DNA of 64,000 bases, from positions 1 through 64,000 of the IMG/VR virus record IMGVR_UViG_2854418831_000003; one strand, 5' to 3'. Each line of letters opens with the position of its first letter. The first letter of the stretch is position 1. The notes under the pieces were generated by a model, which saw only the letters and a program-made list of their open reading frames with translations, did no database searches and had not been told where the DNA came from. Positions 2,089 to 49,285 of the stretch are shown in pieces. The translations under genes were made by a program, and so were the position numbers. Source of the DNA: a virus. Its lineage: Duplodnaviria; Caudoviricetes.

Positions 2089-2865
2089 TTACTCTTCCTC
2101 CGCACACAACGCTTTAAAAAATTCTTTTCCTTTTGGTGTAACCAATGTCTGTGAACCAAGATGTCCATTGTTAAAATAGTCTTTTACAATAAACAGATCA
2201 TTGTTCTTCTCCACCGCATAGGGTAACAGCGTGCCGGATGGACTCCTATATAGAAATCCTCTATTTAAAAGAAGTTTCACAAATTTTCTTTCTGGAAATT
2301 CAATCTCTTTTGCCGTCGTTCGAATATTGGTGCATTCTCCTGTAATCATGAAATGATCATAATAATCTGCTTTTGGCTGCATATCCTTTACACGATTTTG
2401 CAATTCTCGATTTCGATTGTTTTCTGCCAAAAGTCTCTCGGCAAATTCCAAAAGAAGTTCCGGGTTATCTTTTACCCTGTCTAAAAGATCGGTCTCTAAA
2501 TATCCGCCTGTTTTCCTAATAGCCGGAAGTACCTCATCAAATACCCACTTCTCAAAATTCTGTGCTGACTTTAAACGACTTTTTGTAATCAGCCGATATA
2601 CATCTCCCTCTGGAATAAAAATCATTGGCTGTACCCCACCTGATGTAAGGACGCCCCGTTTCAGGGCCCCCTTGCAATGAACATTTATCGCATTTCTTGG
2701 TTTTGCATATCCCAAAGCAAATGCTACATCAATTCCAGAAAATAAAAGTCTGCCTCCATCTTCAATCATACGGATGGAACCAAACTCCGAATTGTGAAAC
2801 TCTGTGATTTTATAATCCGTCTTCTCCATCCTCTTCTCCATCCTCTTCTCCTCCTGAACCGGCAA
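2089..2865 (-). CDS. Bro-N / KilAC(ANT) phage antirepressor-like protein
   Basis: N-terminal EFGSIR..FSGIDVAFALGY..IPEGDVYRLI..AQNFEKWVFDEVLPAIRKTGGY; C-terminal QPKADYYD..TNIRTTAKE..QTLVTPKGKEF. Confidence 0.85.
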   Translation of the reverse strand: MPVQEEKRMEKRMEKTDYKITEFHNSEFGSIRMIEDGGRLLFSGIDVAFALGYAKPRNAINVHCKGALKRGVLTSGGVQPMIFIPEGDVYRLITKSRLKSAQNFEKWVFDEVLPAIRKTGGYLETDLLDRVKDNPELLLEFAERLLAENNRNRELQNRVKDMQPKADYYDHFMITGECTNIRTTAKEIEFPERKFVKLLLNRGFLYRSPSGTLLPYAVEKNNDLFIVKDYFNNGHLGSQTLVTPKGKEFFKALCAEEE

Positions 2866-6150: not shown

Positions 6151-7245
6151 TTACCTGTCTGGAATATCCTTCCCCCAGTACATGTCATGTCGAACTTCAG
6201 CATCATAAAACTGATTGATTGTTGCAGGAGCGTTATACAATACCGTCAGCATATACTGCCGGATATTCTTCACTTTGCTTGTACTCCTGTCAAGACTGAA
6301 AAACACATACTGGATGTGTTCATACCCGACTTTGAGCAAACGGCTCTTGACCACTTGTGTAGGCACAGCTTCCCCATTGATCTGTTGATATGTCTTTGTC
6401 GAACATATTGCATCCAGCATCAGCTCTACCAGCTCTTCTACTCGTCCAGTTCCATAGCTCTGACAAAGGATCTCATATTCGATATTATCATGAATTAACT
6501 GTCGATACTCATTTCTCTCCTGTATCCTATCTCTCCCTTTCTCTTGTTCAGATAGATATTGATAAGATTCATTCTCACTAAATTCAGTATAATTATATTC
6601 AGTATTATTACAGTTTGTTTTTGAAACTTCTTGAAGTTTGTTTTCTAAACTTCTTGAAGTTTGTTTTTCAAACTCCTTGAAGTTTGTTTTTGAAACTTCT
6701 TGAAGTTTATTTTTCAAACTTCCTGAAGTTTGTTTTTCAAACTTCTGTGTATTTACGGGCTTTTCCGGCTCTTTTTTCGCATATTCTTCTATTTCTGTCT
6801 CTGTATTTTCTTTTCTCTCTGCTACATTTTCCGGTGTTTCTTCCGAATCAAAGATTGCTGGCTCATCTGGATATTCTGTCAGGCTGAAATTTTTCACGTA
6901 AATAACATTTGTTTTTCCAAGTCCGATTCGCCTCTTCTCAATCAATCCAATCCCTTTTTCCTGATCCAGCTCTTTTAGACAATTCACAGCCTTATTCCTG
7001 CCACAGTTAAGCATTTCCATAATCTCTTCCACCGAAAAGAAAATATATGCCCTGTCCTCTTCATCAAACCACCGGTTCTTGATGGACAGTGACATCCGGT
7101 CTAACATCAGTCCGTACAGCACCTTTGCTTCGCAGGAGAGATTTTTAAAATATTCACTTGTAAACAGCAGTTTGGGAATACGATAAAAACTGTACATATC
7201 GCATTCCATTCCTTGAAAATAATGGAATGTTGCTCTTATACTCAT
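6151..7245 (-). CDS. repA: RepA_N family replication initiator
   Basis: FYRIPKLLF..LSCEAKVLYGLMLDRMSLSIKNRWFDEEDRAYIFF..GLGKTNVIYVK; C-terminal KVKNIRQYMLTVLYNA. Confidence 0.85.
   Translation of the reverse strand: MSIRATFHYFQGMECDMYSFYRIPKLLFTSEYFKNLSCEAKVLYGLMLDRMSLSIKNRWFDEEDRAYIFFSVEEIMEMLNCGRNKAVNCLKELDQEKGIGLIEKRRIGLGKTNVIYVKNFSLTEYPDEPAIFDSEETPENVAERKENTETEIEEYAKKEPEKPVNTQKFEKQTSGSLKNKLQEVSKTNFKEFEKQTSRSLENKLQEVSKTNCNNTEYNYTEFSENESYQYLSEQEKGRDRIQERNEYRQLIHDNIEYEILCQSYGTGRVEELVELMLDAICSTKTYQQINGEAVPTQVVKSRLLKVGYEHIQYVFFSLDRSTSKVKNIRQYMLTVLYNAPATINQFYDAEVRHDMYWGKDIPDR
6612..6746. repeat. Six tandem 23-bp iteron-like repeats inside repA
   Basis: AGTTTGTTTTTGAAACTTCTTGA units at 6612, 6635, 6658, 6681, 6704 and 6727. 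Confidence 0.85.
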
Positions 7246-11363: not shown

Positions 11364-11587
11364 ACTCCATTTGCACTCCATTTGGTCTTTTCGACACCCC
11401 GCAAAGCCTTTATTTATGGGCTTTTCCGCGATTTTTCAAGCTACTCAAACTCGCAAATGAGTTTTTGTCACTATACAATTTTGTATAGGCGTTATGGTTC
11501 TATCTGGTTTTATATGTGTTCCACTATCCTTAGTCCACGGACTGTACTGAACGGTGTTATCAATTTGTTATCATATTTCTGTTATCA
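11364..11587. other. att junction between ICE A and element B
   Basis: ACTCCATTTG x2 (11364, 11375), core TCAAACTC (11445-11452), TGTTATCA x3 (11555, 11566, 11580). Confidence 0.6.
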
Positions 11588-34639: not shown

Positions 34640-35323
34640 TTACTTGGCCGGTATGGTCAGCTTTTGGCCGGGGTATATCAAGTTCGGATTCTTTATCTTG
34701 TCCCTGTTCAGGTTGTAAATTTCCGTGTATCTGGAGCCTTTACCCAGCAGGCGCTGTGCAATCCTCCATAAACAATCCCCGGATTTTACCGTGTAGGTGG
34801 TCGTCTTTTTGCCTGTTTTGGGCTGCTTCTTTTTAGGCGACGGTCTGGTTGGCGTTTTTATTTTCAGCTCATTGGTGGTGTAAATCTTTATATCTCTGGC
34901 AATAATAAATTTTATGTCATAGAAATAATCTCCGGATCCACCTTTGTACTTGCCTTTAAAACTGGAAACATAAACAGAATAGTTTATGCAGGTGCCAGTG
35001 CATAGCAAAGTACATTTTGTGCCATTGTCCCGATACTTTTCCAGGCTTTTGATCAGTGTGTCGGGTTTGGTATACTTTCTTACCAGTCTGTTTTTCTTCC
35101 GCACTGCCCCTGGAAACATCCCGGACCACGAAATCTCTTTTGTTCCTCGTCCACGGGGGAGTTTTACGTCCCCCAGTGAAATAATGCTGTACGTCATAAA
35201 TTTTGCGTCAGCACCCATTGTTATAGCTTCCGGCAGCATAGGGAACTGTATTCTGCTGCCGCCGGATGGTGTCAGGTAAATATCCATGTCCCTATGCCTC
35301 CTGTATAAGCGGCATGTTTGCAA
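34640..35323 (-). CDS. LysM-containing tail tube initiator (XkdP-like)
   Basis: QFPMLPE N-terminus; C-terminal [27 protein letters not shown]. Confidence 0.85.
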
Positions 35324-38300
35324 AAATTTTGCTCATGCGCTCTGCGATCTCGTCTCCCAGGTCGTCTGCCATTTCGCGGATCCGGTTTTTCATAACTTCA
35401 AAGACCTTTTCCTCGTCCATGTTTCCGCCCTCGATCTTAATAACTGGACTCATGTCCACGTTAATCTCAAAGTTGTTGTTGCCCTGCTGTCCCTGCACTG
35501 CTGCATTGACAGAAACGGCTTTCTTGCCCTCGGATTCCTCTTCGCTACTATCCCCCGACATTTCCTGGCCGGTTACACTCCACACGCTCTTGCTTTCGTC
35601 CTGTGGCTGTGCCTGCAATGGCAAAATGGTATTGCTGGCCAGTTCTTCGCCGCCAGGCCCTACGATTCCGCCGTTTGCGTGGGCTGCAATTTCTCCATTG
35701 CTGTCCAGCACGCCCAGGTCCTCGCCTGCCTGCTGCCACAACGCAATGCCGCGGCCACGTCTGCCCGGTACCGTCGGGATAACATACTCTTTGCCCTCTT
35801 CTCCTAACCAGGATAATTCTGCGCCATGCAGGCCCACCTCTCCACCGTTTGCATGTCCGGCAATGGATACAGAAACTGTTGATCCACTGCTGTGCGTGCT
35901 CAGTGAAGCGCTTGGGTTCGTGATATGGTAGGAAACTGTTACATTTACAGAAGCCCTTGCAGAATAAGGGGAGTTAAAAGCTGCTTGCAGCTCACTACCT
36001 ACTTGGCTGTAAACTGCTGCTATATTGTCGCTGGCTTTCTCGATTGTCACATCCGTGCTGCCATTGGTCTGCATAGTGTTGGAAAATGTATTATCAAGTT
36101 CCGCCTGTGCAGATGTGGCTGCCGGTGTTGCATCCGTGCTGCCTGCTTCTACGGTTAAATTGGTGGTCATTGTGGTGTCTGTGGTGTTTGTTTCACTGCT
36201 CAGAGCTGCCTGCGCTGCCTCTTCCACCGGTGTTGTGTCTGTGGATCCGGCTGTCGTTGTCACGTTTACCTGCTTCTCAACAGTCGTGTCCTCACTTCCG
36301 CTTGCTGTGCTCTGCTCCACTGCTGCCTCAATGCCGCTTGTGTCTACCTGTACCAGATCGGACGGTATAGTTACCGTTGCCCCGGACTGTACCTGTATAC
36401 CGGCACCGCTCAGGGTTCCGGTTTCCATTCCCAGGGCCGCCTCTATCTGTGCCATGGCTGTTTCAGAATCAACCTCAACGTTTGCCAGATCCACCTTTAC
36501 ACCGTCAGCAGTAACAGAAAACTCTGCACCCTCTGCGGTCAATGCGGACATAGCCTGGTCAATGGCTGTTTTGGCTGCGTCTCCGTCAACCTCTGCTGTC
36601 AAGTTATCCATGGAAATTTTCAGCTCGTCGCCTGCATGAATAATATACGGGCTTTCAATGCCGTTTTCTTCGGCTATTGTCTGCCAGTCTATTCCCAGGG
36701 CGTTGCCGATCTCCCATAAGCAATCCCCAGCCTTTACCTTAATGGTTGCGCCCTCTGCGGTCACGTCCTCGGTTTCGGCCAGGTCGCCCAGTTTTTCGTT
36801 TAAACTGGAAACCCATGCGTCTTTGTCAATGTCCACGCCGTCAACTTCCGCTTTCAGATCTCCCAGTTCCACCGGTTCGTCTGTAACAGAAGCCGTTGCA
36901 CGCTTCCAGGCTGCTGAAAATTCCTCACCCAGCTGCCCGTTGGCATCCATCTTACTTACCGCATCAATCAGGGCTTTGTCCCCGGAATCTGCAATGCTTT
37001 TTGCGTATACGTCCCAGGCTGCGCTTGTATCTCCGGAAGCAGCACCGATGGCCATAGTCTCGTTAAACTTGTCCATGATCTGCTTTGGCACATCCTGGCC
37101 AACTTTTACATATTCGTCCACCAGGCCGCGCATGGAGTCTGCATCTGGTTTCATGGCTTCCCACACCTTTTCAAGTGCGTTCTGGTCGCCACTCTGTAAG
37201 AATTTCCAACCGCCGCCCTGCTGTGCGTAATCCGCACCGAACATGTTCAAGTGATCATACAAGCTCTGCATGTCTTGGTTGTTCAGGTAATTCTTTAAAT
37301 AATCAACCTCATTTCCCATGCTTTTCTTTGTCTTTCCCTGGTTTGTTGCGATCAGGTCGCCATAAGTACCGCCCAGGGTGTTGTTTTCAAAGTCCAGGCT
37401 GGTCATGAGATCGTTTGCCTTTTGGTTTCTAATTGCCTGGCTGGCCAGGTCTTTGTAATGCTCATTCTGCCGCTTTGTAATTCGTCCAGAAGCCTCCGCG
37501 GCATTTAAGTATGAATAAAATTCTGTTGCCAGCGCCTGGGTTTCATCTGCTGCGGTTTCTCGCTGATCCGCCAGGGCTTCCACTACCGAAGTAAAGGAGT
37601 CTGCAGTCAGGTCTTTGCCGCTCAGGCTGCCGTATTCCTGGTTGATCCAGTCAAGCTGTGCCTGCGCTTCCGCCTGATTCCATTTGCTGGTTATGCTGTT
37701 CATTTTATCCTGTAAAGCTGCCACTGCCTGCGCTTCGTCAACATCAATAATGCCGTCCTGCAGCGCTTCCTCCACGGCAGTTTTCAGGTCATTGGATAGA
37801 TTGGTCAGTTCCAGGTGGTCTGCTCGCGCCCATTCCTCAATACTGCTCGCCAGGCTTTCACCCTCCTCAGTACCTCCCAGGAATGTCTGCACGCTTATAT
37901 GAGCCGCAAATGTCCGGCTTTCAAGCTCGGAAATTTTGCTTTCCACAAAGGTTGTTACATTGTCCTTATAGGACTGTTGCTCGTCAGCGGTCAGCTCAAT
38001 GCCGACGCTGCTTTTCCATGTCAGTGCCTGGTTTGCTTGCAGTGCTTCCTCTGCTTTCTTTCTCAGTTCGTCGGCGTTCTTAAATTCATTGATCGCCATC
38101 TCAACATTTACCAGGTACTTTGCGTTTAAGATTCCGGAAGCTGCTTCCTCTGCCTGCTTCGCGCTCAGCTCAATACTGCCAAAATGGTTCGCCAGGCTGT
38201 TGCTGATCTGCTTCTCGTTATAGTTATCTATGGCCACACCGATAGCAACCACGGCCGCTGTAATTGCCGCCGCTGCAATGCCAACCTTTCCGGCCATAGG

Positions 38301-38846
38301 AATCATGGATCCCAGGTCGCTCACAAAAGCGCCAACTGTCGGAGCTGTCTGTGCTGCCATCCCTATGTTTTTAATCGCGCTGCCAATAGGGGACAAGGCT
38401 TTCACAATACTGCCCGCTCCGCCGATCAGGGACGTTGCTCCTTTAGCAATCAGTCCAGCACTCAGCCATGAAGTCAGACCGGCCTGTTCGCCGCCCGGCA
38501 TAATCTTTGCAGCTTCTCCAAACAGGCCGCTCAGTCCTTTTGATAACAGGTGTTTGCCCTTACTGCCGGCCCATTTTGTAAATGGCTCTGCGATCAGTGT
38601 GTCCCATGCAATATCAACCTTTCCAAACAGGTCTGCGTTTTGCCATTCCTGGGAGTTGGTCATACCGCTCACGGTTCTCTTGATTCCCTCGGCTTTACCG
38701 TCAACAAAGTCCATCAAATTTGTAAGCGCTGCTGTTGCTGCCGGTGTTGCGTCTGTAATCGCGTCCACAACTCCACGGATGTACGGTGTCAGCCTCTTGC
38801 CAAAACTGTTCTGTACGCCCTCAACAGCGGACTGCATAAGTGTCAT
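35292..38846 (-). CDS. Tape measure protein, C-terminal fragment (contains a LysM domain)
   Basis: Begins with the duplicated MTLMQSAVE; [24 protein letters not shown]; HANGG motifs. Confidence 0.85.
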
Positions 38847-38916
38847 GGAACAAAGCAGATTATTATGATCATTTCATGATTACACTCAACAGCGGACTGC
38901 ATAAGTGTCATGGAAC
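38820..38916. repeat. 32-bp direct repeat / 33-bp insert / 32-bp direct repeat
   Basis: CTCAACAGCGGACTGCATAAGTGTCATGGAAC at 38820-38851 and 38885-38916; insert 38852-38884 is the reverse complement of 2341-2373. Confidence 0.95.
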
Positions 38917-40612
38917 CCTCTAGGTTATCCAGCATAGTGTCTGACATGTCCTGCGCTGCTCCGTCCGCATTATAAATTGCGTCGCTCAGCTTGTTATAAT
39001 CTTCCTTAGAAGCATTGATAATAGCCAACATTCCAGCCATTGCTTCCTTGCCGAAAATGGTGCTGGCCGCTGCTGTCTGTTCAGTCTCAGAAAGTCCTCC
39101 CAGGCTGCCGCGCAAGTTATCCATGACACCTTTCAGTGTTTTCATGTTTCCGGAGCTGTCGGTCAAGCTGATTCCGTACTTCTCCATAGCTGTTGCCATG
39201 CTGTCAGTAGGTGCTGCCATATTCGCCAGGGAAGTCTTTAAGGCTGTACCGGCCATGCTTCCCTTGATGGAACTATTGGCCATAAGCCCCAGTGCCATGG
39301 ATGTATCTTCAACGCTGTACTTCATTGCTCCCGCCACTGGCGCAACGTATTTGAATGATTCTCCCAACATACCAACGTTTGTGTTTGCGCTGGCGCTGGC
39401 TTTTGCCAGTACATCCGCAAAATGTCCGGAATCGCTTGCCTTTAGGCCGAATGCCGTGAGCGCGTCGGTTACAATATCGGAAGTGGATCCCAGGCTCTCG
39501 CCGCTGGCTGCTGCCAGGTTCATAATACCGGAAATACCGGAGATCATCTGTTTCGGCTGCCAGCCCGCCATTGCCATGTAATTAAATGCCTCAGCTGCCT
39601 CTGTCGCTGTAAACTTGGTCGTTGCTCCCATTTCCTGGGCTTTTGCTGTCAGGTCCTCAAACGCCTGCCCTGTTGCTCCGGAAATAGCCCCGACCTGGCT
39701 CATCATGCTTTCAAAGTTTTTGTAAGTGTTTACCGTATCGCCCAGACCTACACTGATACCTAGTGCCGCGCCTGCCTGTGTCAGCGGGTTCTTTGCAGCG
39801 TTTATTATTGCCGTCAGAGGTGCTGTGGCTGCATCCACGACGCTCACTGTTGCCGTCCAGACGCTGCCGTCCCAGGCTGCTGCCTTATCCCGCACACTAT
39901 CAATAACCGGGCTTGCGTTGTCGTCTGCTCCCAGCTGCGCGGATCCGGAACTTCCGGAAAAATTCTCAACAGCGTCCTCTGCTGCTCTTACGATCGGGGT
40001 GGCGTTATCATCCGCCCCCAGCTCCGCTGTGGCGCTCATGCCGTCCAGCATTTCCGTGGCGTCCTCCGTCGCTCGTATTGCCTGGGTGGCGTTGTCGTCT
40101 GCTGTTAGCTCTACGGTTGCCACATCCCCATCCAGGGACGCCAGCGCGTCGCCCGCGTCCCTTATCTCCATGGTGGCGCTATCATCCGCGCTTAACCCCA
40201 CAACCGCCTCATTGCCATTCAAGGCGGTCAGTGAGTCGCCCACGTCGTCAATAATTCCGGTTGCGTTATTGTCTGCTCCCACTTCAACATCCGAGGAGGT
40301 GCCGTCCAGGGTTGCTGCCTGGTCCGCTACGTCGCTCAGGGTTCCTGTGGCTGCGTTGTTCACGTCTACGTCAACGCTTGGGCTTACGCCGTCCAGGGAT
40401 TCCGCCTGATCAGATACCCGGCTCAGTCCCTGGCTTGCGTTGTCGTCCAGCTCAATATCAATATTGTGCGCTCTTTCCAACCGATCAAGGCGGCGCTGTG
40501 TGCGGTCCCACGCACGTTCAAACGCCGTCAGGTTTCTTGTGGCCGACTGCACACCAGCACCGGTGCGGTCAACCGCTTCTATCGGAATTTCAATAGTTAA
40601 TGTTTCGGCCAC
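38843..40612 (-). CDS. Tape measure protein, N-terminal fragment
   Basis: PhageMin_Tail core (FESMMSQVGAISGAT..GATTKFTATEAAEA..MLDNLEGS) and about 29-aa ADDNA repeats; aberrant tail [13 protein letters not shown]. Confidence 0.9.
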   Translation of the reverse strand: MAETLTIEIPIEAVDRTGAGVQSATRNLTAFERAWDRTQRRLDRLERAHNIDIELDDNASQGLSRVSDQAESLDGVSPSVDVDVNNAATGTLSDVADQAATLDGTSSDVEVGADNNATGIIDDVGDSLTALNGNEAVVGLSADDSATMEIRDAGDALASLDGDVATVELTADDNATQAIRATEDATEMLDGMSATAELGADDNATPIVRAAEDAVENFSGSSGSAQLGADDNASPVIDSVRDKAAAWDGSVWTATVSVVDAATAPLTAIINAAKNPLTQAGAALGISVGLGDTVNTYKNFESMMSQVGAISGATGQAFEDLTAKAQEMGATTKFTATEAAEAFNYMAMAGWQPKQMISGISGIMNLAAASGESLGSTSDIVTDALTAFGLKASDSGHFADVLAKASASANTNVGMLGESFKYVAPVAGAMKYSVEDTSMALGLMANSSIKGSMAGTALKTSLANMAAPTDSMATAMEKYGISLTDSSGNMKTLKGVMDNLRGSLGGLSETEQTAAASTIFGKEAMAGMLAIINASKEDYNKLSDAIYNADGAAQDMSDTMLDNLEGSMTLMQSAVECNHEMIIIICFVP

Positions 40613-47986: not shown

Positions 47987-49285
47987 TTATCGTCTTGTTG
48001 CCTCGTACTCATGTACAAGGTCAGGGTTCTGTACACATGCAGCGTCAATGGATTCTGCATAGCTCAGGGCGGCGTTGCTCTTGCGGATTTCTTCCGCTTT
48101 CTTTTCGATCTGGCTCCATGCGTCAGTGCCTCCTGTGGCTCCTACGCCTCTTTTGCCAACTTCTCCGAAAAGTCCAGATTTTTCTACCGCTGCCACTGCT
48201 CCGTCAAGTACGCCGATCATGTCGTCGTATGCAGTGCCGCCTGCTGCCTGCAGTGCCTTTAATGTCGGGACCAGTTCTTCCGGTTTCTTGCCGATGATCT
48301 CGTACTTCTTCGCAACGTTGTAAAGTTTTTCCTCCTGCGCTGCGTCTGCCTGCTTTCTCAGTGCGATCAGTTCAGCTGCCACTAACGGGTGCAGGCCCTT
48401 GTAAATATCTTCGCCTGCTGCCTGCTGTCCTGTTGCTCCCTGTGCGCCCTCAGCGGCCGCTCCTGGGGTTTCTACTACTCCGGTGCCCGCTGCCTTGCCT
48501 ACGCCCTCCGGCGCTGCTCCTGCGCCTGCTCCTGCGCCCTCAGCTCCATCCTCAACACCATAGCGCTTTTTAAGTTCTTCAAACGCCATGCGGTCTGTTG
48601 CTGTCATGTTTGCCTCGTTGAATTTCATGTCAGTTTCTCCTCCTATAAATTTCTTTGTTTTGGTTTTTCCGTTATCTTCCGGCGGTGTCTCCCCGCCCTC
48701 CTGTTCAGGATCCTCTGTTTCCGGCGGCTGCGGTTTGCCTGTCGCCTTTTCAATCATCCCTCCCAGGCGGTCAACGGTTTCCTGCATGTGCTCTACGCTC
48801 ACGGCACCAGCTGTTTTTACAATCTGTGCCGTTTTACCTGCGCCCCAGGAAGTAACCAGGCCCTTGATGGCCACGTCAAACTCGTCAATGCTCTGGTTCA
48901 TCAGTGCGGCCTTGTCCGTTACTTCTTCGTCCCGGATAATGCTGCACAAGCTGTTTTCCAGTGCAAAACACACATCCCAAATTTCATCAGTAATGCGGCG
49001 GAGCTTGCGTTCTTCCATCTTGTCATTGAATGTATCTGCTTTTTCAATGTCGGCCACTGCGCTGTCAATGTCTGCCTGGTCCAGCTTCAACGCCTTGCCA
49101 ATGGCAGAAAAGAACTTGTGCAGGCCGCTTTTTGCTGGTGCCTGTTCCGGATTCTGGCCCGTCGGCTGTTCTTCCGGTTTCCCGCCGTTTCTCTTATACA
49201 GGGCAACGTGCGCGTGCTGGTTTGCGCCAGCATCCACCAGGCTAACCTCTGTTACTTCCAGGTCTTTCAGCTTTGTCTTTGCCAC
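47987..49285 (-). CDS. Scaffold/prohead protease-associated protein
   Basis: LEVTEVSLVDAGANQHA N-terminus; helical, low-complexity body. Confidence 0.65.
   Translation of the reverse strand: MAKTKLKDLEVTEVSLVDAGANQHAHVALYKRNGGKPEEQPTGQNPEQAPAKSGLHKFFSAIGKALKLDQADIDSAVADIEKADTFNDKMEERKLRRITDEIWDVCFALENSLCSIIRDEEVTDKAALMNQSIDEFDVAIKGLVTSWGAGKTAQIVKTAGAVSVEHMQETVDRLGGMIEKATGKPQPPETEDPEQEGGETPPEDNGKTKTKKFIGGETDMKFNEANMTATDRMAFEELKKRYGVEDGAEGAGAGAGAAPEGVGKAAGTGVVETPGAAAEGAQGATGQQAAGEDIYKGLHPLVAAELIALRKQADAAQEEKLYNVAKKYEIIGKKPEELVPTLKALQAAGGTAYDDMIGVLDGAVAAVEKSGLFGEVGKRGVGATGGTDAWSQIEKKAEEIRKSNAALSYAESIDAACVQNPDLVHEYEATRR

Follow-up and report, generated by a model that had tools for sequence, protein, structure and literature searches.

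A 33-bp fragment of a gene carried by a conjugative element (ICE) is found in the tape measure gene of a prophage on the same contig of a Blautia genome, where it splits the gene in two and is flanked on both sides by copies of a perfectly duplicated 32-bp target sequence. Most probably (we would put it at roughly 0.7), the type I-C Cas1-Cas2 of this Blautia lineage placed the ICE fragment at this non-CRISPR site. The analysed DNA, referred to here as the window, comprises the first 64,000 nucleotides of an 80-kb record and corresponds to contig PSQG01000006.1 (GCA_003324155.1) from about position 48 onward.

The donor protospacer lies at positions 2341-2373 on the minus strand and the insert at 38852-38884 on the plus strand. 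Equivalently, the window contains two copies of the 33-mer and no more (2341-2373, plus; 38852-38884, minus), with 0 mismatches and with 0 such matches expected by chance, which bears out the original prediction that one site is the exact reverse complement of the other. The match also stops as sharply as had been claimed, the first base outside the 33-mer differing between donor and prophage on both sides; the donor reads ...TTC TCC, then the 33-mer, then TGG. The surrounding gene (2089-2865, minus strand) is still intact and encodes an antirepressor with Bro-N and ANT/KilAC domains (Pfam E values of 1e-17 and 9e-19). It adjoins genes for a DUF3801 protein and a T4SS coupling protein of a conjugative element with 39% GC, and the 33-mer represents 11 in-frame codons of its open reading frame (K-A-D-Y-Y-D-H-F-M-I-T), so that both the frame and the domains agree with the earlier description of a donor of 11 sense codons inside an ICE antirepressor gene. 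The antirepressor protein is also encoded on ICE copies in other assemblies; the 33-mer lies in the conserved open reading frame of many ICE copies, is 100% conserved in one of them (L003) and is absent from the relatives of the prophage. Transfer thus ran from the ICE into the prophage, in line with the proposal that the ICE served as the source of the prespacer.

Two further features of the ICE were observed alongside the donor. The window starts inside the T4SS coupling protein gene (1-1530), and in another copy of the ICE (L045:3833-7504) a group II intron (RVT_N/RVT_1/GIIM) interrupts this gene at about the same place; such an intron may be the reason for the assembly break at the window start. 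On the side of the ICE that carries RepA_N, ParB and ParA (replication/partition), about six 23-bp tandem units of iteron-like appearance occupy window positions 6612-6745.

In the prophage, which has a GC content of about 51%, the insert is flanked by direct repeats at 38820-38851 (copy 1, a pseudo-repeat that is leader-proximal in the repeat-like orientation; plus strand) and 38885-38916 (copy 2, plus strand), which are identical to each other at 32/32 positions. The empty site is preserved in relatives: two related viral contigs (L001 and L002), 97-99% identical near the site, carry the 32-mer in single copy and no insert. The net event is a 65-bp insertion made up of 33 bp of foreign DNA and a 32-bp target duplication. 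In silico removal of 38852-38916 restores a single open reading frame of 1751 aa that is 99.5% identical, without gaps, to an intact relative (P0018). With the insertion in place, an N-terminal fragment of 589 aa with the PhageMin_Tail domain (38843-40612, minus strand) passes through copy 2 and the insert and stops in copy 1, and a C-terminal fragment of 1184 aa with a LysM domain (35292-38846, minus strand) makes up the rest. At 38843-38846 the TGA of the N-terminal frame overlaps the ATG (as ATGA) of the duplicated codons that open the 1184-aa remainder. The frameshifted tape measure should cripple tail assembly unless both fragments complement each other.

No mutation is present in either 32-bp copy or in the insert, the split tape measure products are recorded on one contig only, and the intact 1751-aa form is found on many contigs (its 90%-identity cluster has 1,964 members); the event is therefore recent and private to this lineage. 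The flanking 21.8 kb are otherwise collinear with relatives. Microhomology amounts to 0 bp at both junctions, which is consistent with integrase-mediated strand transfer and speaks against template switching. Insertion of a transposable element was considered and rejected, the insert being the interior of an open reading frame whose sole other copy is that same frame; a 32-bp target duplication is also atypical of transposons. A check of the other short-period direct repeats revealed no second such structure in the record. Among the candidates set aside, the direct repeat at 75463 lies in frame within a conserved and intact gene, and the 23-bp iterons account for the one at 6612. Metagenome scans for the 33-mer as part of an array or of an insertion yielded no further instance of the allele and no native array containing it, nor was a canonical TTC-adjacent version of the spacer found behind an I-C repeat end in these scans.

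The dimensions of the insertion can be compared with those of the CRISPR arrays of the host genus. Arrays lying beside Cas1 were surveyed in Blautia, where Cas1 was found in 48 of 132 species genomes and Csd1, which marks type I-C, in 33 of 118 species. Type I-C arrays come in two repeat variants with repeats of 32 bp (33 bp in one sub-variant) and spacers of 32-38 bp. Type I-B arrays have 30-bp repeats and spacers of 34-39 bp, while a second class with 30-bp repeats has spacers of 32-37 bp. A class with 36-bp repeats has spacers of 33-42 bp, a class with 29-bp repeats beside a long Cas1 fusion has spacers of 37-45 bp, and type II arrays combine repeats of 36 bp with spacers of 29-31 bp. Repeats of 32 bp are thus confined to type I-C among the array classes surveyed in the genus, and the duplication has exactly this length. 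The 33-bp insert lies inside the native I-C spacer range, and spacers of this length make up 158 of 617 native I-C spacers (25.6%). A type II product was rejected, as it would require a 36-bp duplication and a spacer of 29-31 bp, and so was a type I-B product, which would require a 30-bp duplication and a spacer of 34-39 bp; splitting the 65 bp as 30 + 35 is impossible, because the donor bases beside the 33-mer mismatch the target. The original prediction had likened the donor flank to the PAMs of type I-B and type II systems; both type II and the local type I-B are excluded by the 32/33 geometry, which fits type I-C only. It had also proposed to compare spacer length and PAM with those of native spacers, and at the level of the genus the two diverge: the 33-bp length fits native I-C spacers, while CCA is not the TTC of type I-C.

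No cas gene and no genuine CRISPR repeat is present on the 80-kb record. Exact-protein matches to a widespread I-C Cas2, to the VirB4-like protein of the ICE and to the host GuaA included no further contig of GCA_003324155.1. The chromosomal neighbourhood can nonetheless be placed. Past the prophage integrase follow guaA, a Na/Ala symporter gene and a methyltransferase gene (L057:1-4855), which are 96-99% identical to genes in Blautia species genomes, including B. fusiformis; the ICE, an IME and the prophage form a stack at the 3' terminus of guaA. The segment 12304-16002 had been considered as host DNA containing guaA and was rejected, as it matches the genus poorly and guaA proper is located on the far side of the prophage. 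The guaA 3' terminus, with the core ...ATTGAGTTTGA(A/G)TAA, is a hot spot, as seen at L057:4820-4960, at window positions 11445 and 20582, at L073:1437 and in L110-L118.

A complete type I-C operon with its array starts about 450 bp downstream of guaA in one Blautia genome (G061) and in ten public assemblies, the guaA of which is 97.7-98.8% identical to that of the host. A mobile element at a further locus (L073) lies between guaA and cas3 and terminates at the att core, immediately ahead of DUF3892-cas3. Ten assemblies that encode a GuaA identical to that of the host were inspected; downstream of it, 1 carries the I-C system (L116), 3 a type I restriction-modification island and 6 mobile elements, and in these last six the elements hide what follows the guaA site. 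The I-C repeat is absent from the five nearest species genomes, and four of these also lack Cas1. Type I-C is a frequent but variable occupant of the guaA site in the host's species complex. In one assembly (L078; GCA_046986205.1) the guaA-linked I-C operon is annotated as broken genes, with cas3 and csd1 in pieces and no calls for cas5, cas7 and cas1; what remains is cas2 and an array of 41 repeats. Either the locus has decayed or the sequence contains errors.

The target itself bears some resemblance to the I-C repeat. On its plus strand, the 32-mer matches 11 of the 18 positions shared without exception by the I-C repeats of the genus, namely TC at 2-3, C9, G15, GTG at 21-23, TG at 27-28 and AA at 30-31, compared with 5 of 18 in the opposite orientation. 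A further match is the GC at leader positions -3/-2, and the site has no AT-rich leader. Counting both strands, 0.087% of the positions on the record score as well, a statistic chosen after seeing the data, and equally good sites would number in the thousands in a 3.7-Mb genome. With the full leader and repeat weight matrix of I-C variant 1 the site ranks only in the top 5.7%; variant 2 scored better. The likeness is suggestive of recognition by the I-C integrase and no proof of it. In its folding the pseudo-repeat differs from the genuine article, as it forms no stem-loop (-2.4 kcal/mol vs -12.5 and -13.0 for genuine I-C repeats).

The PAM of type I-C is 5'-TTC, and the PAM end of a new spacer is joined leader-distal of the first repeat (PMC6519985). 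For one native I-C spacer of the genus, the protospacer is directly preceded by TTC. At the donor, the PAM position reads CCA in the repeat-like orientation (TGG at 2374-2376 on the plus strand, equal to 5'-CCA on the coding strand), which is not a type I-C PAM, and TCC in the other; the canonical TTC (2335-2337, within the flank TTC-TCC at 2335-2340 on the plus strand) stands 3 nt from the protospacer and not next to it. The flanks TGG/CCA and TCC are hence present as first described, as is the lack of an adjacent TTC. Their interpretation as PAM-like is not supported: 5'-CCA and 3'-TGG denote a single trinucleotide, seen once from each strand, and 15% of random sites in the record have a CCN/NGG or TTC flank in one orientation or the other (3.4% for CCA), so that the flank has no evidential value. 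A PAM for Blautia type I-B could not be derived, as no protospacer was found for the I-B spacers collected. With no TTC adjacent, the prespacer was therefore non-canonical. One study reports PAM-less spacers when Cas4 does not act (PMC6519985); that PAM-less prespacers are more prone to ectopic integration is speculation. Separately, a TTC-flanked 36-bp protospacer starting at 2338 would end at 2373, the same base as the 33-mer, so that the insert equals this 36-bp protospacer minus its three PAM-proximal bases, in flipped orientation. The shared end may be a coincidence, of a kind that has a chance of about 1 in 8 when offsets and strands are allowed for.

We infer that Cas1-Cas2 was the agent, that it belonged to a type I-C system and that this strain itself carried the system. 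The I-C adaptation complex (Cas1-Cas2, with or without Cas4) would have captured 33 bp of double-stranded DNA from the antirepressor gene of the co-resident ICE. Instead of entering the leader-proximal repeat of an array, the fragment would have been directed into the tape measure gene of the prophage, at a site partly resembling an I-C leader-repeat junction. The two strand transfers, on opposite strands and 32 bp apart, would reflect the repeat-length ruler of the enzyme, and gap repair would then have duplicated the 32 bp between them. The resulting 65-bp insertion would have caused the frameshift that split the 1751-aa gene into open reading frames of 589 and 1184 aa. The repeat-spacer-repeat unit created in this way lacks both a repeat hairpin and a leader and so probably does not function as a CRISPR locus, and a working crRNA is unlikely to arise from it given that there is no stem-loop and no leader and that the matching protospacer has no PAM. 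Its practical effect, as far as can be read from the sequence, is the mutation of the prophage.

The same structure might have been produced without any CRISPR enzyme, through template switching, slippage during replication or the repair of a break, with 32 bp duplicated and a 33-bp filler added. Donor and target do lie on one chromosome, about 36 kb apart, and no cas gene has been demonstrated in the genome as represented by the 80-kb record. We consider this course of events unlikely, however, as it would require a chance agreement with a subtype native to the genus, in repeat length as well as in a common spacer length, and this at a target in the top 0.09% for resemblance to the I-C repeat; the lack of microhomology and of any other such structure in the record also speaks against it. 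A different adaptation module could also be imagined as the source of an off-target integration, for example the type I-B system of close relatives (G001, G013 and G059), which has 30-bp repeats and for which CCA would be a genuine PAM. The 5'-CCA stands at the PAM position in the repeat-like orientation, and the I-B array period, about 65-66 bp, is as long as the insertion. This is nevertheless quite improbable, since the enzyme would have had to apply the wrong ruler (32 instead of 30), the insert is shorter than any of more than 150 native I-B spacers (34-39 bp), the donor flanks rule out the 30 + 35 re-partition, and 3.4% of random sites would have a CCA flank.

Since the split allele comes from one contig only and metagenome scans gave no second instance, a chimeric read or mis-join in the sole assembly with the allele also has to be weighed. 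It is very unlikely: a chimera would not yield a perfect 32-bp target duplication around a 33-bp insert, a de Bruijn assembler should be unable to make junction k-mers that are absent from the reads, and the flanking 21.8 kb are collinear with relatives. Virus-borne mini-arrays are known, and the layout of repeat, spacer and repeat, with a spacer that matches a rival mobile element of the same cell perfectly, could be taken for one of them, that is, for a functional phage-borne mini-CRISPR array with a crRNA directed against the antirepressor of the competing ICE. This is scarcely credible in view of the nature of the 'repeat', which is ordinary tape measure coding sequence found once in relatives and has no hairpin (-2.4 kcal/mol, as given above), of the protospacer, which has no TTC PAM, and of the insertion itself, which breaks an essential tail gene. 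For similar reasons, the structure was rejected as a genuine CRISPR array: it has a single spacer, no hairpin and no leader, it is a singleton allele, and its repeat is single-copy coding sequence in relatives.

The proposed stray integration by a type I-C Cas1-Cas2 can be set beside several known systems. Off-target integration with a repeat-length duplication is an established activity of Cas1-Cas2 according to Nivala et al. 2018 as cited (10.1101/148544, PMC7054753). As far as those two sources convey it, the genesis of neo-CRISPR loci (Nivala, Shipman and Church 2018, Nat Microbiol 3:310) concerned type I-E in E. coli over-expressing Cas1-Cas2, and the natural evidence for off-target integration was circumstantial and came from two species (10.1101/148544, PMC7054753). 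Within the scope of that account, the present case shares with neo-CRISPR loci the placement of a spacer-sized fragment at a non-CRISPR site, the repeat-length duplication and the resulting repeat-spacer-repeat unit, as well as a target with a partial likeness to the leader-repeat region. On the same footing, it differs in being natural rather than induced, in its I-C geometry of 32 bp as opposed to 28 bp for type I-E, and in that the donor is an identified gene of a self-resident ICE and the target a prophage structural gene, which is inactivated. In vitro, off-target sites of Pyrococcus furiosus Cas1-Cas2 share specific sequence features with the repeat, and their spacing is set by the enzyme (PMC6698737). 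The Blautia site is similar in matching 11 of 18 invariant repeat positions and in having a stagger equal to the repeat length. Those experiments used plasmid targets in vitro and another subtype and repeat (PMC6698737), whereas a fixed genomic product is seen here.

Canonical I-C adaptation by Cas4-Cas1-Cas2 (PMC6519985) resembles the present event in the 32-bp duplication, the 33-bp spacer and the origin of the spacer from a mobile element. It differs in that canonical integration uses TTC-flanked protospacers and the leader-proximal repeat (PMC6519985), while the present site has neither a leader nor an array, and no TTC stands next to the protospacer. The mini-arrays and solitary repeat units of viruses and plasmids likewise consist of a repeat-spacer-repeat unit on one mobile element with a spacer against another; in contrast to the present unit, which is duplicated coding sequence without a hairpin and a singleton allele, mini-arrays have genuine host-type repeats and are conserved.

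What is new here is a natural instance with I-C geometry for which the donor, the empty site and the consequence are all identified. Natural off-target spacer integration is rarely documented, and this example involves another subtype (I-C) in an abundant human gut genus and gives a concrete case of the genotoxic side of CRISPR adaptation. It shows how a first repeat-spacer-repeat unit can arise, and donor and target form a defined sequence pair for probing the recognition preferences of the I-C integrase. The bolder proposition that adaptation enzymes in nature mutate resident prophages, and that a stray I-C integration fed by the ICE disabled a tail gene right beside the CRISPR locus's own site, we regard as doubtful. 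If it were true and recurrent, off-target integration would genuinely affect the fitness of Cas1-Cas2 carriers, for better or worse, and would be an observable way for proto-CRISPR units to arise on phage genomes.

Native spacers provide a separate view of the contacts between these systems and the two elements. A search for other native spacers matching the ICE, as the original prediction had suggested, found none among 698 collected (620 of type I-C and 78 of type I-B). The prophage family, on its part, is matched by two native I-C spacers of the genus. One spacer from a related Blautia (spacer 5 of L067, from the array of G030) matches the same prophage at 33 of 34 positions (48369-48402, minus strand), within an open reading frame of 432 aa that follows the gene for the S78 prohead protease. 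The PAM position of this protospacer reads TTT and not TTC, and may thus represent a PAM escape variant.
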